Below, piece by piece: positions 642 to 51,000 of a DNA stretch of 64,000 bases. The notes beneath the pieces are model-generated. The model saw only the letters and a program-made list of their open reading frames with translations, made no database searches and was not told the origin of the DNA. Position 1 is the stretch's first letter. The number at the start of each line of letters is the position of its first letter. The position numbers and the translations under genes were made by a program. Source of the DNA: an uncultured bacterium. Its GTDB lineage: Bacteria > CAZDME01 > JAYEMH01. The stretch lies in assembly GCA_964506075.1 (NCBI GenBank), contig CAZDKO010000004.1, positions 134 to 64,133 on the forward strand, written 5' to 3'.

Positions 642-674
642 TTTGTTTTGGTTTCCGTCAAACATCATGGCGGA

Positions 675-696
675 CCCGCCAAAGCTTTTTGGCGGG
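675..696. repeat. GC-rich perfect hairpin (9-bp stem CCCGCCAAA/TTTGGCGGG, 4-nt loop); short member of the GC-rich element also at 37725-37772 and 48352-48399
   Basis: Read directly. The core GCTTTTTGGCGGG is identical at 684-696, 37737-37749 and 48364-48376. A GGTTAA-word array follows at 699-726. Confidence 0.8.
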
Positions 697-1824: not shown

Positions 1825-1836
1825 TTTTTAAACTTT

Positions 1837-1940
1837 GACCCTCTGACCATTTGACACTCTGATACTTTTTATCCCCGCTCCCATTTAACCACTCACCAAT
1901 TAACCATTTAACCACTCACCATTTAACCAATTAACTAAAT
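1837..1940. repeat. Tandem degenerate octamer/heptamer array (GACCCTCT GACCATTT GACACTCT GATACTTT; then CCATTTAACCACTCACC x2 and TTAACC words)
   Basis: Four tandem 8-mers at 1837-1868. The 17-mer CCATTTAACCACTCACC is repeated at 1881-1897 and 1904-1920. CTCTGATACTTTT (1857-1869) is the reverse complement of 24392-24404. Confidence 0.85.
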
Positions 1941-1944
1941 AATT

Positions 1945-2340
1945 TTATCTTTTCCAAAAACACCACGGATTTGGCATTTCCCCTTTAATCTTTTTTATTG
2001 CTTTAGCCAATTCATCTTGACAAAGATATTTAGCGTGGTCGCAGGGGCCTCCGGTATAAAATTTTTCCAGTGTGGATAAAGCCCTCTGGTCTCTTAACTC
2101 TCCCAGTGCCCAAACGGCCACAATTCTTTTATCCATAGCTTGCTCTTCAGAAGCAACATAAGCCAGCAAAGCCTCAATTCTATCTCCCGGATAAATCTGA
2201 CCGGCTTCATCACTAATCTTTTTCACTTCTAATTTTATAGATATAAATGATGACCCGTATAAAACCAGGATAGCCAGAAACCCTAAAGAAAGTCCTAAAA
2301 CAAGAGCTCGTTTCCAATTAACAGATACTTCTTTTGCCAT
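1945..2340 (-). CDS. Membrane-anchored HEAT/PBS-lyase-like repeat protein
   Basis: 131 aa. N-terminal TM helix (ALVLGLSLGFLAILVLY) followed by a HEAT-like repeat (VAVWALGELRDQRALSTL). AAGGAG lies 6 nt upstream of ATG 2340. Confidence 0.5.
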   Translation of the reverse strand: MAKEVSVNWKRALVLGLSLGFLAILVLYGSSFISIKLEVKKISDEAGQIYPGDRIEALLAYVASEEQAMDKRIVAVWALGELRDQRALSTLEKFYTGGPCDHAKYLCQDELAKAIKKIKGEMPNPWCFWKR

Positions 2341-2358
2341 GTTATTCTCCTTATTGTT

Positions 2359-2390
2359 AAAACTGGGGGAATTTTTTTAGTTCCTCCCCC
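2359..2390 (-). terminator. Weak candidate intrinsic terminator downstream of the GT2 gene
   Basis: The minus strand reads GGGGGAGGAA-CTAAAAAAA-TTCCCCC-AGTTTT. The stem needs a bulge and the T-run is short. Confidence 0.25.
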
Positions 2391-2430
2391 GGTAATAAAA
2401 GAATAATTCTTATCTAATCCTAATTTTTAC

Positions 2431-2467
2431 CTATCCGCTATACGCTACCCGCCATCCGCTATATGTG
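2431..2467. repeat. Tandem heptamer array CTATCCG CTATACG CTACCCG CCATCCG CTATATG
   Basis: Five consecutive 7-nt units of form CTANNCG, read directly. The array abuts the stop codon of the GT2 gene. Confidence 0.85.
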
Positions 2468-3442
2468 CTATTCTAAAACTTCCTTCACCACGTAAATCGG
2501 CTTTTCCTGCGTTTCGTGGTGGGTGCGAACCATCATCTCCCCTAAAAGACCCAGGCTGATAAATTGAAACCCGAGAATAATCAAAAGGATGGCTAATAAT
2601 AAAAGCGGACGGCCGGCAATACTCTGCTGAAAAAAGAGCCTGAGAACGGAGAGATACAAAGCAATCACAAATCCCAGGAAAGAAAAAATCACCCCCATCA
2701 GCCCGAATATCTGCATGGGGCGGGTCGAAAAACTCATTAAAAACTTAACCGTAAATAAATCAAGGAGGACTCTCATCGTCCGGGAAATGCCGTATTTGGA
2801 TTTTCCTTTAGTCCGGGGATGATGTTTAACTTTTATTTCGGCAAAGGTTATTCCCCGGATGCTCGCCAGAGCCGGAATAAAACGGTGCATCTCGCCGTAA
2901 AGATTTAAAGATTTCACCACGTCCTGACGATAGGCCTTAAGGGTACAGCCATAATCGTGAAGTTTCACTTTACTGACGTGGGAAATAAGAAAATTAGCCA
3001 TCTGGGAAGGCAGCCGTCTGGTTAAAAAGGGTTCTTTGCGGTCATAACGCCAGCCGCTGACCAGGTCATAACCCTCTTTCATCTTATCCATTAATTTCTT
3101 GATGTCTTCCGGGTCATTTTGTAAATCGGAGTCAAAGGTCATAATAATCTCTCCCCGGGCATAGTCAAAACCGGCTGAAAGCGCGGCCGTCTGGCCGAAA
3201 TTTCTCCGGAAAGAAATAATCTTGATATGGCGGTCATGCTGATGAATCTTTTTTAACATCTCCAGAGAACCGTCGCTGCTTCCGTCATTAATCCAGATTA
3301 TTTCGTAACTCTGGTTAAGTTGAGAGAGCGCGTCCTTTAATCTCTGATAAAGAGGCAGGATGTTTTCCTCTTCGTTATAAACAGGAATAACGATTGATAA
3401 ATCTAAAAGTTTCCCTTCGTTAGATAATTTTTCTTTTTCCAT
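2468..3442 (-). CDS. Polyisoprenyl-phosphate glycosyltransferase, GT2 (GtrB/ArnC/DPM1-like, with C-terminal TM helices)
   Basis: 324 aa. IVIPVYNEEENI, DGSSDGS and DSDLQNDP (DXD) match GT2. Two C-terminal TM helices are present (IFGLMGVIFSFLGFVIALYL; LLLLAILLIILGFQFISLGLL). GGGAGA RBS precedes ATG 3442. Confidence 0.8.
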   Translation of the reverse strand: MEKEKLSNEGKLLDLSIVIPVYNEEENILPLYQRLKDALSQLNQSYEIIWINDGSSDGSLEMLKKIHQHDRHIKIISFRRNFGQTAALSAGFDYARGEIIMTFDSDLQNDPEDIKKLMDKMKEGYDLVSGWRYDRKEPFLTRRLPSQMANFLISHVSKVKLHDYGCTLKAYRQDVVKSLNLYGEMHRFIPALASIRGITFAEIKVKHHPRTKGKSKYGISRTMRVLLDLFTVKFLMSFSTRPMQIFGLMGVIFSFLGFVIALYLSVLRLFFQQSIAGRPLLLLAILLIILGFQFISLGLLGEMMVRTHHETQEKPIYVVKEVLE

Positions 3443-3451
3443 CTGCTTCTC

Positions 3452-3582
3452 CCATTAGTTAACTGGTGAGCGGTGAGCAGCAAATAGTCGTTAGTGAATA
3501 GTATCTAGTATTTAACAACTACTAAATACTAACGACTAGCGACTAAATACTTAATAACCCACCCTGTTCACTACTCACCATA
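3452..3582. repeat. Long quasi-palindromic spacer built from GGTGAG / TAGTNNN words and their complements
   Basis: GGTGAGC GGTGAGC (3465-3478) opposes CTCACC (3574-3579). TAGTCGTTAGT (3485-3495) is the exact reverse complement of ACTAACGACTA (3528-3538). AGTATTTA (3507-3514) pairs with TAAATACT (3523-3530). The 17-mer TAAATACTAACGACTAG (3523-3539) recurs at 16776-16792. Confidence 0.85.
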
Positions 3583-14829: not shown

Positions 14830-16692
14830 TCACTTTCTATCCAGCCACTTCTGCGCCCAGATTTCAAAAACCAAAAGAGACCAGAGACGATGACTATTAT
14901 CTTCTTTCCCTGCCAGGTGATTTTTGATTAAGGTCTGGACATAACTTTCATTGAAGAGTCCGCGCTTTTTTAATTGCCCGGGGGAAAGAAGTTCCAGAAG
15001 TAATTCTTTAAGTTCTTTTCGCATCCAGTTTTTTACCGGGCTGCTGAACCCTTCTTTGGCTTTATTAATAATTTCAGAAGGCAAAATGTCTTTCATTGCT
15101 TCTTTAGTGATATATTTAGTTTTAAATCCTTTAAGCTTCATTTGCAGCGGAACGGTGGCCATTAACTCAACGACTTTTTTATCCAAAAAAGGAAACCGGG
15201 CCTGAATAGAATTAACCGAACTCAACCGGTCAACTTTCACCAATCCCGCATCAGGCAAATAACTGTGTAAATCAACATATTCTAACTGGCAGAGCTCGGG
15301 TAAATTACCGGCCTGTTTAAAAAGAGAACGGATAAGGTCGTAAGAATCTACTCCTCCCGATGCCCTAAATAAAGAATCTTTATACAAATATTTTTTATCC
15401 AAATGACTAAAAGCAATCATCCAGCGTGTATGCTTAAGGTCAGACGGTAAAATTTCTCCCTGAAAAAAACGGCGGAAACGGTTTATCAGGCCTTTTTTTC
15501 GCTCCTCTGGTTTAATCCCGGCGAAATATCTTTTTATAAAAGGCGGCATCAAACCGGCGTAACGGGTTAATCCCTGGGCAATATAAGTATCATATCCGCC
15601 GAATGATTCATCTCCCCCGTCGCCGCATAAGACGGTCTTAACATGCTCTCTAGCTAATTTAAAAGCTAAAAAAGTAGGGAAAATAGAAGTGTCGGCTAAG
15701 GGCTCATCAAAAAAACCAAGTATTTGACGGATTAACTCCGTCTTTTGGGAAGATACTATTAATTCGTGATGCTCGGTCTTAAAGGTTTTAGAAACTATCC
15801 GGGCATACTTTAATTCGTTGTAGCTTTTGTCCTCAAAGCCGATGGAAAAAGTTTTAACGGGATTAACCATTTTACTCATTAAAGCCACAATAGCACTGGA
15901 ATCAAAGCCACCGCTTAAAAGCACCCCGGTATCGGTATCACTTAAAAGGCGAAGTTTTATGGACTCTCTAAAAGTCCGGAGGATTTCCCTTACTAACGTT
16001 TCCTCTTTCCTCCCGGGTATAATTGAAAAATTAATTTCCCAGTACGGTTTAATTTCTATTCTTCCGTCTTTAAACAATAAATAATGCCCGGGCAGTAATT
16101 TTTTTACACCTTTAAAAATACAACTACTGCCCATCACGTATTCAAAAGTCAGATAACAATCTAAAGAAGCTAAATCTAACTCCTTCTTCACCTCCGGATG
16201 AGAAACGACCGCCCCGGGTAAAGAAGCAAAGATTAAACTTCCCGGGAATTCAGAAAAATAAAGCGGTTTAAGTCCGAGTCGGTCACGAACGAGATAGAGC
16301 TGTTTTTTGACTCCGTCCCAGAGTGCCAGAGAAAAAATGCCTCTTAGACTTTCAAGGAAATCGATTCCTTTCTCTTCGTAAAGAAGAGCCATAATTTCCA
16401 AATCAGACGAACCTTTAAGACGATAGCCTTTACTTTCAAGCTCGGTTTTAAATTCTCCGGCGTTATAAATTTCACCGTCACAAATTAAAACGAGATTATT
16501 ACCTTTATTAAAAAACAACTGTTCTTTTTTAAGAAAACTCCAACCGCATATCCCGAGGCCCACCTCATTTTGAAGATACGTCTCCCGCTGTTCTCCTCCG
16601 CGGTTATTAAGAAACTCCAACATTCGTCCGATAACCTCTGGAGTTATCTTTCTACTTCTATCTTTACTAATCTCTCCGCAAATACCGGACAT
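14830..16692 (-). CDS. asnB: Asparagine synthase (glutamine-hydrolysing)-like amidotransferase
   Basis: It has a glutaminase domain plus the PP-loop LLSGGFDSS of the synthetase domain. ATG 16692 has a GAGGA RBS 8 nt upstream; the track start 16707 is a GTG. The N-terminus reads MSGICGE, so the nucleophile Cys is not at position 2. Confidence 0.8.
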   Translation of the reverse strand: MSGICGEISKDRSRKITPEVIGRMLEFLNNRGGEQRETYLQNEVGLGICGWSFLKKEQLFFNKGNNLVLICDGEIYNAGEFKTELESKGYRLKGSSDLEIMALLYEEKGIDFLESLRGIFSLALWDGVKKQLYLVRDRLGLKPLYFSEFPGSLIFASLPGAVVSHPEVKKELDLASLDCYLTFEYVMGSSCIFKGVKKLLPGHYLLFKDGRIEIKPYWEINFSIIPGRKEETLVREILRTFRESIKLRLLSDTDTGVLLSGGFDSSAIVALMSKMVNPVKTFSIGFEDKSYNELKYARIVSKTFKTEHHELIVSSQKTELIRQILGFFDEPLADTSIFPTFLAFKLAREHVKTVLCGDGGDESFGGYDTYIAQGLTRYAGLMPPFIKRYFAGIKPEERKKGLINRFRRFFQGEILPSDLKHTRWMIAFSHLDKKYLYKDSLFRASGGVDSYDLIRSLFKQAGNLPELCQLEYVDLHSYLPDAGLVKVDRLSSVNSIQARFPFLDKKVVELMATVPLQMKLKGFKTKYITKEAMKDILPSEIINKAKEGFSSPVKNWMRKELKELLLELLSPGQLKKRGLFNESYVQTLIKNHLAGKEDNSHRLWSLLVFEIWAQKWLDRK

Positions 16693-36935: not shown

Positions 36936-37700
36936 CTAAAGCTCATCCGCGAAATAGTGTTCTAATTTAGAAAAAATTAAAAGTCCAAGAATCAAAATAA
37001 CCGCCGAAACCCCTAAAGAAATACTGAGCAGCTTCCAGCTGATTAAAGCCTGCCCGAGAAAGACAGTTCGGTATAAAGTCACCAGCGCCGCCATGGGATT
37101 CAAAAGATAAATTTTAAGCGCCCACTCCGGTACCATTTCTAAAGGATAAAGAACAGGAGTAAGGAAAAACCAGGCCAAAAGGGTTACACTTATAATATGT
37201 TCTGTATCCCGGAAATAGACGTTAGAACAGGAAATTAATAAAGACATCCCCAGGATAAATAAAACCTGAAAAATAATTACCAGCGGAAGAAAAATAAGGT
37301 TTATGGTAAAGTGGGTCTTGAAAATTACAAGAAGAGCAAAAAGAATAACCAGAGAGAGTAAAAAATTAATCAGATTAGCCAGAACCATAGAAAACGGGAG
37401 AATAAATCTGGGGAAATAAGTTTTCTTAACCAGATTGGTATTACCCGAGATTGAATTAACCGAATCACTCAGACACATTACAAAAAACTGCCAGGGCATA
37501 ATACCGGTTAAGAGCACCCTTATATCTATTTTCCATCTTAATATCCCGATAAATATAAGATAAATAACTGTCATAAACAGCGGATTTAAAAGCGTCCAGA
37601 GAAATCCTAAAGTTGAACCCTTATACCGGATTTTCAGGTTCCTTAAAACCAGATTCCAGATTAACTGGCGTCTCTTGATTATTTCACTAAATTCACTCAT
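36936..37700 (-). CDS. wzm: ABC-2 type polysaccharide exporter permease (Wzm/TagG type)
   Basis: 254 aa with 6 TM helices. Typical N-terminus LIWNLVLRNLKIRYKGSTLGFLWTLLNP. Adjacent to wzt. Confidence 0.85.
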   Translation of the reverse strand: MSEFSEIIKRRQLIWNLVLRNLKIRYKGSTLGFLWTLLNPLFMTVIYLIFIGILRWKIDIRVLLTGIMPWQFFVMCLSDSVNSISGNTNLVKKTYFPRFILPFSMVLANLINFLLSLVILFALLVIFKTHFTINLIFLPLVIIFQVLFILGMSLLISCSNVYFRDTEHIISVTLLAWFFLTPVLYPLEMVPEWALKIYLLNPMAALVTLYRTVFLGQALISWKLLSISLGVSAVILILGLLIFSKLEHYFADEL

Positions 37701-37720: not shown

Positions 37721-37912
37721 ACCGCCTGCCCGCCACGCTTTTTGGCGGGCCTGCCTCGCCTTTTGGCGGGTGGTTTCTGCTTTCTATAATAGATATAGAC
37801 CCTATAATATAAAAGCGGGAGTTAAAAGTCAAGGGAAAAGCCTTTGTCGGTTAACCGGTCAAATTAGTTTACCGGTTGGCCAGTTAGCCGGTTATCCGGT
37901 TTGCCGGTTAAT
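37721..37912. repeat. Composite spacer: 48-nt GC-rich element (37725-37772) plus CCGGTT-word array (37848-37912)
   Basis: GCCCGCCA (37728-37735) pairs with TGGCGGGC (37743-37750). 43 of 48 nt match 48352-48399. The 22-mer at 37888-37909 matches 22370-22391. Confidence 0.9.
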
Positions 37913-39288: not shown

Positions 39289-39600
39289 TTAGTAGTCAGT
39301 GGTTATCGGTTAACCGGTTAGCCGGTTTACCGGTTTAACTAAAATGCCTAATTCTAAAATGACTAATAAGAAAACAGAAACCAGAGTACAGAGAACAGAA
39401 AAAATTCTATTTTGGTCATTTGAGCATTTAGACATTTATTCGTCATTACCTGCCTGCCGCCCGCCTGTCACCTGCCTGTCGGCAGACAGGGAGTACAGTT
39501 TACAGAAAAAAATTATTTTAAAAGTTCTAATCTGTTCTCCGCACCCTATTTTTTTTACTTTGTTTTTTTCTGTTATCCGTAATCTGTTATCTGTTCTCTA
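39289..39600. repeat. 312-bp nested spacer: CCGGTT words, ACAGA/TCTGTT inverted heptamer arms, central GC-rich CCTG-word hairpin
   Basis: GAGAACAGA (39391-39399) is complementary to TCTGTTCTC at 39531-39539 and 39590-39598. CTGTTAT CCGTAAT CTGTTAT CTGTTCT spans 39570-39597. CCTGTC-GGCA-GACAGG spans 39475-39490. Confidence 0.85.
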
Positions 39601-39603
39601 AAT

Positions 39604-40293
39604 TTAATCAACAAATCTATATTTAATCAAGACCCATAAAGAAGAAAACCCATCACGCCAGGTAATCTTTTTCCCCTCGTGAAATTTCCTGCCCAGGTAA
39701 CTTATAGGCACCTCTTTAATGTGAACTCCTTTTTTAAGAATTTTTGCCGTTATTTCCGGTTCAATCTCAAACTGATTGGATTTCAGGTTCAAACTTTTAA
39801 GCAAAGAAGTTTGAACCATTTTATAGCAGGTTTCCATATCGGTAAGCCTGGAATGATATAAAGAATTGGTAATAAAGGAAAGAAAACGGTTCCCGCACCA
39901 GTGAAGAGCCGACATATTTAAAGTCCCGGTTAAGAATCTTGAACCGTATATGGCCCGGTCATTTTCTGTTTTTACTTCCGTAATAAGTTTAAGATATTCC
40001 CGGGGGTCGTATTCCAGGTCCCCGTCTTGAATAATTACATAATCTCCGGTGACATAATTTAAAGCTGTTCTGATAGCCGCTCCCTTGCCTTTATTTCTTT
40101 CGTGAAATATAACCTTAAAATTCTGTTTGTCCGCTGTTTGTTCTTTACTTTTCAAAATCTCTCTTGTTCCATCCGTAGAACAATCATCAATAACAATAAT
40201 CTCCTTTTCTATATCAAGAGAACCCACCTTTTCCAGGATTTTTCGGATGGTTGCTTTTTCGTTAAAAATGGGCATGATAACCGATAATTTCAA
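39604..40293 (-). CDS. Glycosyltransferase family 2 (DPM1-like polyprenol-phosphate sugar synthase candidate)
   Basis: 229 aa. LSVIMPIFNEKATI, IDDCSTDGT, QDGDLEYDP. The TTG start overlaps the upstream TGA. Confidence 0.75.
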   Translation of the reverse strand: MKLSVIMPIFNEKATIRKILEKVGSLDIEKEIIVIDDCSTDGTREILKSKEQTADKQNFKVIFHERNKGKGAAIRTALNYVTGDYVIIQDGDLEYDPREYLKLITEVKTENDRAIYGSRFLTGTLNMSALHWCGNRFLSFITNSLYHSRLTDMETCYKMVQTSLLKSLNLKSNQFEIEPEITAKILKKGVHIKEVPISYLGRKFHEGKKITWRDGFSSLWVLIKYRFVD

Positions 40294-42221
40294 AATGACT
40301 CCTTTCTTACCCGCGCCGGACTATTGACTACCTCAATAATATAGTCCCCGTTAAACTTTTCTTTTATTTTTAAAGACCCATCAAATTCAGAAAGCTGAGT
40401 TTTAATTCTTCCTGTTTGTTCTTCATCAATCATCTTAAAATGAACTATTACGTACTTAATCCCCAGAGCATTCAAAAGCTTTACCGAATCAACGTTCGGA
40501 AATTGCTGCAACACCTTATTCATCGGCCAGTAAGAAGGCGGGAAAAATCCGCTATAGCCGTTAACCAAATTTTTCCAGTGGTAGATTGACCAGTACATAT
40601 ACATACATTCATAATAAACCCTGGAGGCATCTACCGGCATCGGTAATTCTACAATTGAAAAATTTCCTTTTTGTTCAGCCAGCCAGCGGCAAAAATAGGG
40701 GGTCTCTATATTAACCTTGTCATAATTAATAGGAATGTAAATTGATTCACAGATTAATAAAGCTAAAAACAATCCCCCTGTTCCCCATTTTAATACGGTT
40801 TGTTTTTTTTGAAAAGAATTAAAAACCCTCTTAACTCCAAACCCGGCTAATACGCTTAAAGAAAAAATAACCAAGCATCCCCAGCGGGCCGGCACGCGCA
40901 GGCCCGCAAACCCGGGGATATGATTGTAAAGAAAAAGGTACGGTAGATTAATTAATTTCTGATTATCGCTGCCGAGTAAAGCCGGGCCTAAAGAAAAAAT
41001 GAAACTGAACAAAGCCAGCGTCAGATAAAGGTTACCCCGGTAAGACAGAGCTATAAATCTTTTCCTGTCCCGGCTATTCAACCAGCGCAGGATAACCAGA
41101 AAGACGCATATATAAACAGGATTCCTGAGAGAATGGATACTAACGTTAAATAAAGCCGTCTTGAAATCAAATCCTCCCCATTTTTGCAGGACAACTATTA
41201 ACAGGCAATTAAATAATATAAAAACATCCAGAATTTTGTTAAATTTTACCCTGAATTTTTTAATCTCCCCTTCTTCTTTTTTACCTTTTATTCTGAAAGT
41301 AGCCATAACGGCTAAAAGTAAGACCGTTATTCCGGGAAAGAGCTGCGCTTCTCCGGAGACGAACTTCTCGGTTAATTTTCCCAAAAGCCTGTTTCCGGTC
41401 GGGGTAGCCAGATAATTTGATGGCCGGGCCGAATATAGTTCTACTTCACTGAGGTTTCTCTTAAATTGCATTTCTTTTTTAAATTTGTAATAAGGATAAA
41501 AGAACGGAAAAAGAATTAATCCGGTTAATGCTCCGGCAGAGACTAACATCAAAAATTTCTTCCGGTTGATTTTTCTGTTTAGAATAAGAAAAATAAAACT
41601 GATTAATATAACCACACTCAGGAAAAAAGCGTAATAACTGCAAGAAAGAGCCTGAAATATGAAAAAAACCGCCAGAAGAATCAGGTCCAGGATTTTATTC
41701 TGCTCAATGAATCTATGAAAAAATAAAAAGGTAAAGGGAATCCATTGCATGGTTAAAACCTGCAGATGCCCCAGATGACCAAAACGGAAAGGACAAAAGG
41801 CAAAAATAAATCCGGATAAAAAGGCTCCGAATCTGTTCCCGGTCAAATGAAAAACCAGGCAATACATACCCAGGCCGGAAAGCACAAAGCTTAAGATAAA
41901 AAGAAAATTATAAATGAAAATCGGCTCTCTGGTGACGAGAAAAACCGGCAGGGCTATAACGGCCTGGGCAATAAGATGGTCTGAATAAGCCAGGGTATTG
42001 GTATCGGGATAAAAAATATTGGCGTCAAAAAAATTACTCGCCCCGGTCAGAAACTTATGGATATCCCAGTTCAATATCCAGACGTTTAAAAGAGGGTCTC
42101 CCAGGTTTTTAACGTAATGCTCCATCCCGGTAACTAAAGGATAAGTAGCCAGCAAAGAATAAACGATAAAAAATAAAATTACCAGAAAAGAGATAAGCAT
42201 TTTTTTCATTATTAACCTCAT
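40290..42221 (-). CDS. Polytopic membrane protein, GT-C-like (same family as 46025-47776)
   Basis: 643 aa. LLATYPL...LGDPLLNVWILNW follows TM1, then at least 10 TM helices and a C-terminal soluble ~150 aa. ATGA overlap with the upstream gene. Confidence 0.5.
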   Translation of the reverse strand: MRLIMKKMLISFLVILFFIVYSLLATYPLVTGMEHYVKNLGDPLLNVWILNWDIHKFLTGASNFFDANIFYPDTNTLAYSDHLIAQAVIALPVFLVTREPIFIYNFLFILSFVLSGLGMYCLVFHLTGNRFGAFLSGFIFAFCPFRFGHLGHLQVLTMQWIPFTFLFFHRFIEQNKILDLILLAVFFIFQALSCSYYAFFLSVVILISFIFLILNRKINRKKFLMLVSAGALTGLILFPFFYPYYKFKKEMQFKRNLSEVELYSARPSNYLATPTGNRLLGKLTEKFVSGEAQLFPGITVLLLAVMATFRIKGKKEEGEIKKFRVKFNKILDVFILFNCLLIVVLQKWGGFDFKTALFNVSIHSLRNPVYICVFLVILRWLNSRDRKRFIALSYRGNLYLTLALFSFIFSLGPALLGSDNQKLINLPYLFLYNHIPGFAGLRVPARWGCLVIFSLSVLAGFGVKRVFNSFQKKQTVLKWGTGGLFLALLICESIYIPINYDKVNIETPYFCRWLAEQKGNFSIVELPMPVDASRVYYECMYMYWSIYHWKNLVNGYSGFFPPSYWPMNKVLQQFPNVDSVKLLNALGIKYVIVHFKMIDEEQTGRIKTQLSEFDGSLKIKEKFNGDYIIEVVNSPARVRKESF

Positions 42222-44851: not shown

Positions 44852-45351
44852 AATCCACCTAAACTATTAAACATGATATCCCGGAGATCCCAGAAACGAT
44901 AAGGTAAAAATAATTGAAAAAGTTCATCAAAAAAACCGATAGTAAGGACAAAAAGCCAGGCAAAGCCGACTCCGTAGGTTCCTTTTTTATTTTTAGTGAT
45001 TAAATCCCGGCTGGCAAACCAGCCCAGCAGGCCGAACTCCAGGATATGGATTCTTTCCTGCGGTAGTTTCATCTGCCAGGCTAAACCTAATCCGGTTATC
45101 AGTAATACCAGCAATAGCAGATTTTTCTTTAAACCCGGGGTATCCTTTAGAAAGAAAAAAAGAAAAGCCAGTCCGGCTAAAATAAGTATTAGCCCGATTA
45201 AAATAACAAACGTTTCTTCCCCGTAACAGCCTGTGAACCCCTCCATTAACTGCCGGGTAAAAAGAGAAGAAAAAATAATGAATAAACTGAAGAATATCGT
45301 TATTTTAGAAATTAGCTTAAAAAGGTGACAGGCTACTTTTCCGTTTCTCAT
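44812..45351 (-). CDS. VanZ-like family membrane protein
   Basis: 179 aa with 4 TM helices. FFDELFQLFLPYRFWDLRDIMFNSLGG is the VanZ signature. Its ATG shares one base with the RAYT stop (TAATG). Confidence 0.7.
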   Translation of the reverse strand: MRNGKVACHLFKLISKITIFFSLFIIFSSLFTRQLMEGFTGCYGEETFVILIGLILILAGLAFLFFFLKDTPGLKKNLLLLVLLITGLGLAWQMKLPQERIHILEFGLLGWFASRDLITKNKKGTYGVGFAWLFVLTIGFFDELFQLFLPYRFWDLRDIMFNSLGGLWGIGLYYLKKII

Positions 45352-46013
45352 TATGTTCCTTTTTTTGGCCTTCCTCTTGATCTAAGGGTAGATTCCAATC
45401 CCAGTTTTTTACTTACTTGCACTTGCCATCTTAATGTACCATAGGGAGATTGACGATGAACACTCTGACGAATGTTCTGTAATTCTTTCTCTGTTAGTGG
45501 TTCATCTACATATCTATTCCAATTTTGAGTCAGTTCTATGGGAGTTTTATCAACCAAGAAGGGCGACTTTTCACCAATAAGCTCTCTATGAGAAGACCAT
45601 ATCCACTCCTTAGCCGAACCAACCAAAGCAGCCCTCACTGGGTTAACCTCAACATATCTCATCACTGTCAGTAAATGATTGTCATTTTGTATAATAAAAC
45701 TCTTAAAACGTCCTTGCCAAATATGCCCACTAGATCCATAATGCCGATGATAACGGCGCACATGACTTGTCAGCAGCCATTGCATAGATTTGCTTAGTTC
45801 TTCAGCCTGAACAGGCATCACAACTAGATGAAAATGGTTTGGCATTAAACAATATGCAAAAATTTTTATGGCATACTGAGCTTTTGTTTTCACCATTAAA
45901 TCAATGAAAGCCTCATAATCCTGATCTTTATGAAAGACTACTTGCTTGCCATTTCCACGGTTAAGCACGTGATAAATAAAACCACTCCTTAAACCTCTTG
46001 TAATCCTTGGCAT
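45351..46013 (-). CDS. REP-associated tyrosine transposase (RAYT), IS200/IS605 TnpA-like HUH/Y1 enzyme
   Basis: 220 aa. YHVLNRGN, CLMPNHFHLVV (HUH) and RYVEVNPVRAALV (catalytic Tyr motif). The ORF is intact. The 663 bp contain no CCGG tetramer, although CCGG is very frequent in the flanking genes. Confidence 0.85.
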   Translation of the reverse strand: MPRITRGLRSGFIYHVLNRGNGKQVVFHKDQDYEAFIDLMVKTKAQYAIKIFAYCLMPNHFHLVVMPVQAEELSKSMQWLLTSHVRRYHRHYGSSGHIWQGRFKSFIIQNDNHLLTVMRYVEVNPVRAALVGSAKEWIWSSHRELIGEKSPFLVDKTPIELTQNWNRYVDEPLTEKELQNIRQSVHRQSPYGTLRWQVQVSKKLGLESTLRSRGRPKKGT

Positions 46014-46024
46014 GAGTTATCCCC

Positions 46025-47776
46025 CTAATTAAAAGTAGCCTGTCCCCTTTTTATTTGATAGATCCTGGCTTCGGGAAAATCTTTAATGAATTTTAAATCC
46101 TCGGTGTTATCGAGAATAGATAAAGCTTTATCATCATAGACATCCTTATGAACAATTAAATAATTTACGCCTAATTTACTTAAAACAGAAAAACTCTGAG
46201 GGTTTAAAATATCCAAAACTGTTTTTCTTATCTCCTCCCCTTTTGAACCGGCAGGAGCCCCGTTAATCATTTTTTTCTGATGGACCCTCTGATAAAAAAG
46301 ATACCGGTAATGATTTTCATTTATCCAGTCATATAAAGGATATTCAGCTATGACTATATCGGCTGGTTCTTCAGCCAACCAGCTATACACCGGCGGAACT
46401 TTACGAAAATCCACGTTGCGGAAAGGAGGGATAACCGTATATTCAAAAAGTATCAGCCCGGAAAAAACCAAAGATAAAAAAATCTGCTGAGATCTTTTTT
46501 TAATTCTTAAAATAATATTTCTTAAGCCGAAAGCAGCTAATACGGCTACAGAAAGTATAACCAGAATTCCTACCCGGGCATTAACTCTGAACATCGGGAA
46601 AAAACGATAAAGGAAAAAAGAAGGGGTCGGTATTTTTATTTTCCATAATTTAATGACTGGAGCCAGAGAAAAATAAAAAGAAAAAAACGCTGTTAAAAGA
46701 AAAAACGGAACGTAAAAATTCTCTCCGGGTTCAATTAACTTTTGCCGGTGATGCCCTATCCACCCCCATACCCCTACCACCGCTAAAAGTAAAGGCACTA
46801 TTCCCAGATAGAGTGTGGTTTCCGACCAATATCTTCTTCCTCCGGTAACTTTCTCTATTATTTTTTTAGTAAAGTTACCGAATAGCGGATGGTATTCACT
46901 GGGCAAAATGTAATCATAAGGTTTAGCTGCGTAACGGAAGAGGTCAGTATAGGGCTGAACGTATTTGATAAAACTCGTTGTTTGCTCCGAAGGAAGAATT
47001 ATGTTTTTTATCGTCTGGTAAGTCGAAGGCAGAAGCAATAAAACAACAATCAATAGCGTAAACATCACTATTTTAAAGTTTTCTAATCTTTTCTTGGAAC
47101 TAACTTCATATTTTCTGTTAAACAATTTATATATAATTTTAAACAAAAAGAAAGCGGCGGTAAATAAAACCATAAAATAGCCGTAATAGAAAGAGCTGAG
47201 CGTCAAAAGGACAAAACTCAAGGCTAAAAAAAGACCGTTCCGGTAAGATTTTCCCCCGGCAAATTTAAATAAAATAAGGATATAAAGAGGCATCCATTGA
47301 ATTGCCGCTAAACCAAAATGAGAAAAGGCCTTAAGTGAATGGTAGGGGCAAAAAGAAAAAATGATACCCGCCATCATACTTCCCAATTTTTCCCTGGTTA
47401 AATAAAAAACCAAGTAATAAGTTATAATGGCAGAAAGAATGAAACTGGCCAAGATAAAAAAATTGTAAGCGAAAAATTCATTTTGCCATAGGGAAAGAAA
47501 AAGCATTGGATAAGATAAACAAGGCTGGGTCACTTCCCCGCTCATATCTAAACCGGAAGGATAAGCGATTAAATGATTGAAAGTAACCGGATATTTATTT
47601 AACCAGGCGAATTTTGCCCACCAGATGCTGTAAAGAGACCCGAGGGAATCAAATGTCCAAGCCGGGTCACCGAAGATGCTGTGATTTATTTTTAACACAA
47701 GAGGATAAGTGATTATTAAGCTTAGCAAAATAAAAAAAGAGAAAATGATTATTTCTCCTTTTTTAAAATTAAACAT
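46025..47776 (-). CDS. Polytopic membrane protein, GT-C-like (same family as 40290-42221)
   Basis: 583 aa. LIITYPL...FGDPAW...YSIWW follows TM1. Multi-TM, with a C-terminal soluble domain ending in a GVNYLIVHKDVY region comparable to GIKYVIVHFKMI in 40290-42221. Confidence 0.5.
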   Translation of the reverse strand: MFNFKKGEIIIFSFFILLSLIITYPLVLKINHSIFGDPAWTFDSLGSLYSIWWAKFAWLNKYPVTFNHLIAYPSGLDMSGEVTQPCLSYPMLFLSLWQNEFFAYNFFILASFILSAIITYYLVFYLTREKLGSMMAGIIFSFCPYHSLKAFSHFGLAAIQWMPLYILILFKFAGGKSYRNGLFLALSFVLLTLSSFYYGYFMVLFTAAFFLFKIIYKLFNRKYEVSSKKRLENFKIVMFTLLIVVLLLLPSTYQTIKNIILPSEQTTSFIKYVQPYTDLFRYAAKPYDYILPSEYHPLFGNFTKKIIEKVTGGRRYWSETTLYLGIVPLLLAVVGVWGWIGHHRQKLIEPGENFYVPFFLLTAFFSFYFSLAPVIKLWKIKIPTPSFFLYRFFPMFRVNARVGILVILSVAVLAAFGLRNIILRIKKRSQQIFLSLVFSGLILFEYTVIPPFRNVDFRKVPPVYSWLAEEPADIVIAEYPLYDWINENHYRYLFYQRVHQKKMINGAPAGSKGEEIRKTVLDILNPQSFSVLSKLGVNYLIVHKDVYDDKALSILDNTEDLKFIKDFPEARIYQIKRGQATFN

Positions 47777-48026: not shown

Positions 48027-51000
48027 TTATTTACCTTTTTTAAGCCTGGTAACGTAAAATATATAACCGAACACACAGATTAAGAAGGTTAATATTGAAA
48101 TAAACATACCCGCATAAAAAAATGACTGGGGTAAGAAATAAAGCACCAGAGTAAAATCTTCCGGCAATCCCATTACTTTCGGATCAATGTACCAGCCGTT
48201 AGCATAGCCGTTAATCAGGAAATGCCTTCCTTCATTTATATCTTCGGTAAATAAAAACTTAATATCTCCGGGCGTAAATTTCATCGAAGGTTTAATTTCC
48301 TTCACCCCGTATTTCGGATATTCCGCCACAATCTCCTCAGTTTCTGTTCTCCCTGCCCGCCAAGCTTTTTGGCGGGCCTGCCTCGCCGACAGGCGGGTGT
48401 CATCCGTACTCTGCAGATATGCCTTCCACTGATTATGAAAAGTTTCACTGAAGATCAGCCAGAACGGTTCTTTCTCTTCAATGTTTATTATATATTTAGT
48501 CGGATTAACTTTCCTAAATTGAACTTGGGGACCTCTATAATTATCACTGGGTTGATAATTCGTTTTACCGGGAGTCTCCATCATTACCCAGTCTACCGTA
48601 AACTCATCATCATCAATCCAAGTAAACTTATGCTCTCCCTTATCCAGATGTATATTTTCCTTCAGCCACATATTCTCTTTAGCATCTTCCTTATCTTTAA
48701 TCTTTTTCTCAAGGTAATACTTTTTCCCGTCTATTCTGAAGACGGGTTTATGAAAAACAAAGTCCCCTGGAGCAACCAGAGAATGCGAATAAACTCTCAA
48801 TTGTTTAAAAGGAAAGGGAGATCTGTCATCCGAACGTAACTTTACTTGAATCAGATTAAACTCTTTACCTGCCGGATAGATATCCTTGGCCAGTTCGTAG
48901 ATATTGAGCGTCAATCTATCTTCATATTCCGGAAAAGTAAGATAATTAAAAAGTATATTTTTATCAACTTTATTATCTCCATCAAAATCCAAATCAAGCA
49001 TAAGTTCGACGCTATCTTTACTGTGCTCTTTGTCTTTATATCTTAATTCTAACATCGGAAATTCCTTAAGATTTATTTTATCAATTGACCTGGACAATTC
49101 TAAATATGCCCATGGTTTAACTTTAGCAAATTCTTCCCCATACGTTTTAAGCACATGCCCTTTATATATCTCTTTAGTTGTCCACTTTTCGATTTCCTCT
49201 TCTACCCTGAAATCTATGTTAAGAGCCTCCTGAAAAAACTCTAGATATTCCTCGGGATAGTAATTATAAAATTTGAATCCCTTAATCCAAAATTTATATT
49301 CTTTCTTTCTGTCCTTGCTGGTACAGTCCGTCCGCCATAATTTATGAGGATTAAGCTCTAAATGTAATAATTCATAATGCCTCTGGTCAGGAAAGTTTCT
49401 TTTAGCTTTGGTATAAAGGTCATAAGTAAAGTGAGCCCAACTCTGCGAAGCCCGATCTGGACATATTCCCCGGATATAACCGTCTATGTTTCCATCAGCG
49501 TCCAAATCTATTCCGGCTACCACCTCCATTGTTTGTATCCCCGGATCTTCAACCCTATACACTAAATCAAAATAAGGGAACTCTTTAAGATCGACTTTGA
49601 ATTTCCGCGTTTGTATATTGACAAATTCATCCTCCTTGCTATCTCCATCAAAATAAACAGATAAAACGAAAATTCCATCTTCATCGGTAGAATAATCATA
49701 AGTTACCCTTAAAGGACGCATAGTCCAATTTTTTAATTCTTCTTCTACGCCCAATTTTAATTCCGGACCCATTTTCTTCTTCCGAACAAAAGAAAAATGC
49801 GGCGTTACCATAGCCTTAAGAATATAATCGCCAGCCCTGGGAAGATAAAAGCTACCATCAACAGCTAAAATAGATTCCCCTTCAGTTTCAGGTTTATTTA
49901 TGAATTCCCATAATTCCTTGTTCTCTTCACCAACTACCTCCGTGAAATCATACCAGCGGGTGTTATAAAAACTTATACTCTGGGGATTTCCAGATATCTT
50001 TTTTCTCTCTGTTTTTTTCTCCGAATCATATCGCGGTTTTCCGTCTAAAAATATATTCAAGGCTGTTTTCTTTTTTTCTTCGTCTGAGACCGCTGGTCCT
50101 CTGGAAGCGTAAATATTTGGTAAGATTTTATCAACTTTATAAAAATCCCACTTACCAAAACTTCTATCCAGAGAAATATCTTTCTGAAACTTCAATCTCT
50201 CTTGAATAAACTGAGGGGAATCATTATCTCCTGACCAGTTATAAGTAAAATCGTTACGCTGAAGCAAATAGCGAACGTTTAAAATCTTTAACAGATTATC
50301 CAGACGGGGACTATAGTCTTTGTATAAACAGGTCTGGAAAAAATGATATAGATTATCCAGTGAACGAGGGGGCGCCATACCTTCTCCGTACTGCCTAAAA
50401 ACAATACCTTTATTGAAAAGTTTGACGGTTATATCTTCAGCACCGCCGTAGCCCCAATCATAGGCATTGGCTTTATCGTCCGGGAGGATAAGGATATTAA
50501 ACTGGGTCGACTGGTTGTTTATCCACTTTGCGGCTTCAAATAAATACGCGGGGTAATCCTGATGAAATCCCGGCAGAACCTGGCGTTCCTCTGTTGTCGG
50601 CAACATCCGGCCAAAGATAAACCCATAGTTATAGATTAAATAGATGCCGAATATAAGGACTATAGCGGTGACAAGTAAGAATCTGACGAAAGTCTTCAGG
50701 AACAATTTGCTGATTCTACTTTTTAAAAACTCGTAAATGTAACCGATGGTTATTCCCGCTAAAAATGCGTAACTAACCATCATAAGCAAGCCAAATTTCT
50801 GCCACGGCGCCCGATAAACCCAGAATCCAGGAATGTTTTTAAAAGCCCAGAGAAATAAATCTCCCAGCGGTTCATGTATCCCTTTACTGATAAAGGTTGC
50901 ACCGAGAGCCAGAAGGGTAAAAAATATTGTATAACGGTAGTTCCGTTCACGAACAATAACTGCAGCATAAGCCAAGATGGGAAATAAAAAACTCAAGATA

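Follow-up and report, generated by a model that had tools for sequence, protein, structure and literature searches.

A GC-rich double hairpin read in frame within an AftD-like membrane protein gene of an uncultured bacterium: a probable insertion of a small REP-like palindromic repeat

The DNA considered here, referred to below as the window, is a stretch of 64,000 nucleotides from contig CAZDKO010000004.1 of an uncultured bacterium. Its GC content is about 39%, and the long open reading frames (ORFs) lie on the minus strand in every stretch examined. Among them is the gene for P0001, which is assigned as an AftD-like GT-C membrane glycosyltransferase-like protein by its match to PF11847 (GT-C_AftD; 30.3 bits against a cut-off of 26, 1.4e-07, and so above the gathering score). 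Within the part of this gene that encodes a C-terminal beta domain lies a GC-rich element of 48 nucleotides, made up of two hairpins, which is translated as part of the protein (Table 1). The origin of this element, and its relation to similar hairpins in other genomes, is the subject of this analysis.

A preliminary description of the window had placed a GC-rich repeat at 48339-48404, coordinates that bracket the element, and had claimed that it is read in frame in the membrane protein gene as an Arg/Ala-rich patch unlike the remainder. Both claims hold. The element agrees with an intergenic copy elsewhere in the window at 43 of 48 bases, where shuffled sequence gave 0 matches, and its GC content is 73% against 38% for the remainder of the host gene; the patch is read as TRLSARQARQKAWRAG. 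Beyond the element the frame enters blocks conserved in all homologues (EIVAEY, KFTPxD, HxxINGYANGW, PQ and the C-terminal transmembrane helix), and the read-through is therefore real. All five mismatches between the two 48-nt copies fall at loop positions (A/C in loop 1; GACA versus TTTT in loop 2), while the stems are identical. The element is free of stop codons in all six frames and its length is 16 x 3 nucleotides, so that truncation of the protein by its insertion is impossible.

The architecture of the element is that of a head-to-tail pair of hairpin units, with CCTG ahead of each. The stem of unit B is 6 bp long and includes a pairing that is a G-T wobble on the plus strand and an A-C mismatch on the minus strand. 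Neither GTAG nor CGTC was found next to the element hairpins; the tag is CCTG, or CTTG in three of the loci from other genomes described below (L036, L039 and L015).

Repeats are prone to misassembly, and two observations would suit a chimeric join through the repeat: the Logan contigs of runs X1 and X2 end at it, and a 37-nt core is common to another locus. Nevertheless, the junction between gene and element is free of mismatches in contigs from three runs of two studies, and therefore is not an assembly artefact. On either side of the element, unitigs of X1 join it to unique gene sequence with zero mismatch, and X3, from the other study, holds an identical left junction. Both flanks are moreover adjacent parts of one homologous protein domain, and we regard an artefact as hardly credible. 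The sequence is best represented in metagenomes from wastewater. Two of the runs, X1 and X2, both of wastewater samples, also contain a further copy, which resembles 70 nt of the window with 6 differences; its core (48364-48400) is identical and is present at about 2x depth. TCTGTTC-type heptamers flank this further copy, and similar heptamers fill the spacers of the locus described here.

Homologues allow the loop that holds the element to be compared between proteins (a search using the C-terminal 197 residues alone added three further homologues to the set). The spacing from WKxY to HxxNGYANGW is 85 residues in P0001. In six homologues with the same loop type (P0011, P0016, P0018, P0052, P0053 and P0054) it is 67-70 residues, the shortfall of 15-18 residues falling exactly at the element and the alignment gap lying on LSARQARQKAWRAG. 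Aligned with LQSTDDTRLSARQARQKAWRAGRTETEEIVAEY of P0001, P0052 reads LNQKPETR, then a gap of 14 residues, then NQKPEEIVAEY. This gap is within the element, which marks the peptide as added to an ancestral loop about 13 residues long, as the preliminary description had proposed. Its further statement that the paralogue P0008 has unrelated sequence at the equivalent position is also borne out, KKPDEKKPVNEVRRYSSALINAWKNRG being found there.

The C-terminal piece was modelled with AlphaFold from 20 sequences (mean predicted local distance difference test score, pLDDT, 81.9). The model predicts a beta domain followed by a transmembrane helix, with the insert as a helix (residues 72-88 of the piece, pLDDT 70-75) between strands 65-69 and 97-101; the surrounding sandwich has a pLDDT >90. 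This fits a protruding, tolerated addition, and is in keeping with the tolerant surface loop suggested earlier. A Foldseek search of the modelled C-terminal piece against PDB gave no significant fold match. A segment predicted as a regular helix, not coil, might instead be taken as a sign that the peptide is native to the protein and under selection, the intergenic copies being derived from the gene or chance lookalikes. However, the peptide is carried by none of the homologues aligned, its composition is foreign to the gene, the chance expectation of the match between copies is 0, and many other genomes, as well as unrelated genes, contain related units. This explanation is largely refuted and we give it very little credence.

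Relatives of the element were sought with an exact-pattern scan of species-representative genomes for the unit A hairpin, which gave 43 loci, about 20 of them in Omnitrophota metagenome-assembled genomes (MAGs), and with a metagenome scan for the junction between units, which gave 41 loci. Cases within coding sequences were found from the DNA pattern alone, with coding status ignored. In one Omnitrophota MAG (L026, 2276-2301) CCTG-CCCGCCAGCGCTTTTTGGCGGG lies in frame in cysN (1833-3179, minus strand) and is read as ...KWHPPKSAGGQARQKASAGESIG..., in a loop of domain II where the 19 closest representatives and the structures PDB 1zun and 3wy9 are shorter by 5-7 residues exactly there. In groundwater loci with 43% GC (L067 1691-1732 and L075 8891-8932) two 21-nt units are in frame in typA/bipA and encode PASPSGGPASPMGG; the solved BipA structure 8ewh has a gap of 14 residues at this insert. 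A third gene, for a TraD/TrwB-like coupling protein, has units in frame (L082 1645-1676, read as PASSAGGPASP) in the linker between its ATPase and zinc-finger domains. The units are read in different frames, giving ARQKAWRAG in P0001, PPKSAGG in L026 and PASPSGG in L067, and those of L067 are oriented oppositely relative to the host gene. Since both frame and orientation differ between host genes, DNA, and not peptide, is the common feature.

A near-identical version of unit B, CCTGCCTCGCCGGCAGGCGGG (21 nt), is found in L008 and L079, with related units in L067 and L082. In one Omnitrophota MAG, L008, L012 and L013 are copies of one repeat of about 190 nt; L008 contains this 21-nt sequence, and the other two lack it. 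Together with the in-frame units in unrelated genes, such presence and absence between repeat copies lends indirect support to mobility of the hairpin units, and the same two observations bear out indirectly the part of the preliminary description that had called the hairpin mobile.

We therefore consider it likely that the element in P0001 is a secondary in-frame insertion of a small, dispersed, REP-like palindromic repeat (REP, repetitive extragenic palindromic). The loop that received it would belong to the extracytoplasmic beta domain at the C terminus of this AftD-like GT-C protein. Units of this kind would spread as DNA, probably as hairpins in single-stranded form or because one copy ectopically converts a short patch of another, and intragenic copies would persist only where the 7-16 added residues are tolerated. 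In P0001 these residues would form an Arg/Ala-rich helix sticking out of the fold.

Several observations weigh against an insertion of this kind. Copies documented so far number at least four, three in the 64-kb window and one in metagenome contigs. The flanks of L026, L067, L008 and the copies in the window were inspected and showed neither terminal inverted repeats nor a target-site duplication, and the analysis produced no candidate for an enzyme that mobilises the hairpin units. A true empty site was not seen among the homologues compared. A relative in the groundwater run X4 is 90-96% identical, and its contigs leave 48225-48429 uncovered. The closest homologue, P0002 (66-71% identity), is encoded in a syntenic locus, L001, in which the paralogue, a methyltransferase gene and the host gene follow in the same order. 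Its WKxY-to-HxxNGYANGW spacing is 81 residues, and it is not an empty site for the mobile hairpin proposed earlier, as it has its own unrelated AT-rich extension of 11-14 residues at a similar place.

A search of the loop of the L001 orthologue for a decayed copy of the element or for another repeat gave nothing significant. Going by the sequences, either the P0002 lineage gained a separate addition at nearly the same spot, or an ancestral addition was later overwritten in P0001. The latter would be a replacement, in which an older insert had already lengthened the loop in the ancestor shared by P0001 and P0002, and a short patch was then overwritten in the P0001 lineage through ectopic gene conversion from an intergenic copy of the repeat. 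The lengths of the two proteins are compatible with this, both being 11-18 residues above the other homologues at this point, and the similarity to the further metagenome copy reaches 70 nt, beyond the 48 nt of the element, as would suit a conversion tract. On the other hand, the extra residues of P0002 align slightly elsewhere, directly after WKIY, and have no DNA likeness to the element, and the cysN and typA cases are plain length gains over conserved proteins. We think replacement rather unlikely, and retain insertion as the preferred explanation for P0001.

Table 1. Hairpin features and genes of the window, with coordinates and strand
Feature	Coordinates	Strand	Details
Double-hairpin element	48352..48399	+	CCTGCCCGCCAAGCTTTTTGGCGGGCCTGCCTCGCCGACAGGCGGGTG; 48 nt, GC-rich; inside coding sequence; minus-strand reading TRLSARQARQKAWRAG, 16 codons
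Unit A	48352..48376	+	25 nt; CCTG tag, then hairpin CCCGCC-AAGCTTTTT-GGCGGG; stem 8-9 bp
Unit B	48377..48397	+	21 nt; CCTG tag, then hairpin CCTCGCC-GACA-GGCGGG
Stretch similar to further metagenome copy	48343..48412	+	70 nt, 6 differences; Logan contigs of runs X1 and X2
Intergenic 48-nt copy	37725..37772	+	25 nt upstream of the start codon of an ABC-2 (wzm-like) gene, 36936-37700 (-)
Related double hairpin	655..696	+	TCCGTC..GGCGGA, then CCCGCCAAAGCTTTTTGGCGGG; 58-nt spacer of two minus-strand genes; overlaps start of ORF 3-668
Tentative distant relative	39448..39492	-	CCTGCC words in opposite orientation; between inverted heptamer arrays; GCCGACAGGC(G/A)GGTG common with unit B
Host gene, P0001	48027..51980	-	1317 residues; AftD-like GT-C membrane protein; C-terminal beta domain and transmembrane helix
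Paralogue, P0008	52888..55764	-	958 residues; without element; shorter loop of different type; PF11847 34.8 bits

The hairpins could alternatively be kept as an RNA or DNA signal (for pausing or attenuation, RNase processing, or protein binding within the operon) and not as a passenger. The stems are constant while the loops vary between copies, both intergenic copies lie just upstream of the start codons of minus-strand genes, and all window copies have a single orientation, each of which would be expected of a signal. Against this, it is in the mRNA that unit B has its A-C mismatch, and the 81-nt region folds no better than unexceptionally (z = -1.4). The preliminary description had predicted that the hairpin would also form in the mRNA; this stands for the first hairpin, which alone is strong on that strand, the second being mismatched there. 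An intrinsic terminator was considered and rejected, there being no U-run after the hairpins of the window copies on either strand, and a consistent orientation relative to transcription was likewise rejected, as orientation is mixed across the 43 loci and the L067 units run opposite to their host gene. Rfam gave no match at the gathering threshold or at E <= 1, save a meaningless 15-bit hit to RAGATH-33. An RNA-signal role for the element is not supported, and retention as a signal of either kind seems improbable.

A RAYT-like Y1 transposase gene (45351-46013, minus strand; PF01797 1e-14; NF047646 77 bits, cut-off 80) lies 2.3 kb from the element. It is flanked by an inverted GTAG-tagged 13-mer, GGGGACAGGCTAC at 46035-46047 (minus strand) and GTAGCCTGTCACC at 45324-45336, and these 13-mers overlap coding sequence on both sides, namely the final codons of the gene upstream and the initial codons of a vanZ-like gene. 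The same 13-mer is found upstream of RAYT-like homologues (69-78% identical) in housekeeping operons of other bacteria from other phyla (L086, L088, L090 and L093), and its complement also occurs downstream of the homologue in L086 and L093. Because the GTAG-tagged 13-mer is conserved beside RAYT homologues, it and not the GC hairpin is the cognate repeat, and no link to the element is drawn. The RAYT as mobiliser was rejected as unsupported, since the repeats flanking the gene are different and the GC hairpins do not flank it. No RAYT-like homologue is encoded in the 8-kb hairpin loci.

Tagged hairpins occur more widely than the in-frame cases. CCTG- or CTTG-tagged hairpins are found in L015, L020, L026, L034, L036, L037 and L039, with head-to-tail dimers in L036 and L039. 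The AT-rich metagenome loci include tandem arrays in which a single site has two units (L064, L081) or three (L066). The array CCTGCCTCGCCGAACGCGAGTCAAGGCGGG (L064, about 1567-1660) has one copy in two contigs and two in the third, and this difference at one site means that the number of units varies between populations. Many other pattern matches in GC-rich contigs (L045-L061 and others), and several hairpins upstream of genes, were set aside as chance or ordinary terminators. We tentatively propose that the CCTG/CTTG-tagged CCCGCC...GGCGGG hairpins might constitute an undescribed, stop-free palindromic family with a basic unit of 21 nt (7 codons). Its hosts would be AT-rich uncultured bacteria living in groundwater and wastewater, Omnitrophota and their neighbours, between whose phyla it would pass, its units multiplying head-to-tail. 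Intergenic spacers as well as surface loops of conserved proteins (AftD-like GT-C, CysN, TypA/BipA, TraD-like ATPase) would be colonised, and the movement would depend on a mechanism other than GTAG-type RAYT. If this were true, such a family would diversify loops quite generally across these small genomes.

In the window itself, the first hairpin of the element recurs at 675-696, within the related double hairpin of Table 1. The similarity of the stretch at 39448-39492 is weak (a 15-nt match, E about 1.7) and its membership tentative. A pair of the type TCCGCC-loop-GGCGGA + CCCGCCAAAGCTTTTTGGCGGG, also represented at 655-696, is conserved, loops included, across several Omnitrophota species (L005, L008, L012, L013 and L041), and forms the core of the repeat of about 190 nt, which has at least three copies in one MAG. 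Another GC-rich palindrome (40884-40907, in ORF 40290-42221) was considered as a further insert and judged native, since the motif encoded there, IPGFAGLRVPARWG, is similar to HIPGFWVYRAPWQKFG of P0001.

Further observations concern the genes around these repeats. In P0001 some 360-450 mid-protein residues (about residues 700-1130, window 48831-49900) are missing from the closest orthologue, P0002, which has 858 residues, and this region is also largely unlike the matching domain of the 958-residue paralogue. Remodelling of this gene thus goes far beyond the small repeat. In P0052 (206 residues, from a 37-kb contig) the C-terminal beta domain and transmembrane helix of the AftD-like proteins make up a separate protein, which has a signal-like segment of its own at the N terminus. 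In L001, heptamer tandem arrays (GTTAAAA / AAAAGTT, 4-6 copies) at 15708-15746 and 15979-16009 lie within a called gene of 593 residues, and may be another case of spacer-type repeats in coding sequence. In L026 a gene for a 23S rRNA intervening-sequence protein (3143-3526; PF05635, 8e-41) lies between cysD and cysN.

The element offers a clean and checkable case in which a functional protein is lengthened by the peptide that a tiny palindromic repeat encodes; the phylum concerned is known from metagenomes only. Elsewhere such units lie in housekeeping genes that are strongly conserved, so that known protein lengths give a yardstick by which insertions can be dated as well as counted. Annotators who meet a GC-rich island of this kind in an AT-rich gene should avoid reading it as a frameshift, a gene fusion or a functional motif.

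Among known systems, GTAG and CGTC REPs are short GC-rich imperfect palindromes with a 4-nt tag, which occur as singletons, head-to-tail dimers and clusters and are mostly intergenic (Di Nocera et al., 2013, PMC3733652; Quentin et al., 2018, PMC6006769). Some are intragenic; in-frame dimers of both types encode 20-30 residues and do not disrupt the protein (PMC3733652), and REPs within tnpA-REP genes keep the frame (PMC6006769). The units of the element are likewise imperfect GC-rich stem-loops in the 20-40 nt range, tagged and arranged as a head-to-tail dimer, with intergenic and in-frame copies. However, their tag is CCTG/CTTG and not the conserved GT[AG]G or CGTC found at the foot of a REP hairpin. 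REPs are dispersed in high copy number through a genome; at least four copies of the element's family are documented here. The element also differs from REP-RAYT systems (REPtrons), in that the RAYT-like gene of the window is flanked by the GTAG-tagged 13-mer and not by element hairpins. REPIN-RAYT systems (Bertels and Rainey, 2011; TnpA-REP, PDB 4ER8), as they are named in PMC6006769, comprise an inverted pair of REPs, the REPIN, with hairpins thought to move as single-stranded DNA. Hairpin repeats and a RAYT-like Y1 transposase gene are present here too, but the element is a head-to-tail and not an inverted pair, and the transposase gene is not flanked by it.

Rickettsia palindromic elements (RPEs; Ogata et al., 2000), as cited in PMC3733652 and PMC10969869, lie in frame in functional genes, and their translation adds a segment at the protein surface that the fold can accommodate. 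They are described there as about 100-150 bp long, confined to Rickettsia, and encoding a conserved peptide in one frame. Like an RPE, the element is in frame in a gene whose product keeps its conserved domains; in contrast to RPEs, it has 48 nt built from units of 21-25 nt, its frames vary by gene, and it is found in Omnitrophota and other uncultured lineages. MITEs, or miniature inverted-repeat transposable elements (ERIC, BOX, Correia and others), are non-autonomous, 70-300 bp long, and can be read through in genes as in-frame fusions (reviewed in PMC10969869). The element resembles them as a small repeat that is readable through inside a gene, and differs in its far shorter units and in the terminal inverted repeats and target-site duplications, none of which were seen. 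As its tag and flanking relations depart from those of REPs and RAYTs, and its size from that of RPEs, the element is not filed under any named family. In-frame insertion of palindromic repeats is already known from REPs and RPEs, and the repeat family of the element appears to be undescribed; the gain lies in a new repeat family and host range, and not in a new principle.

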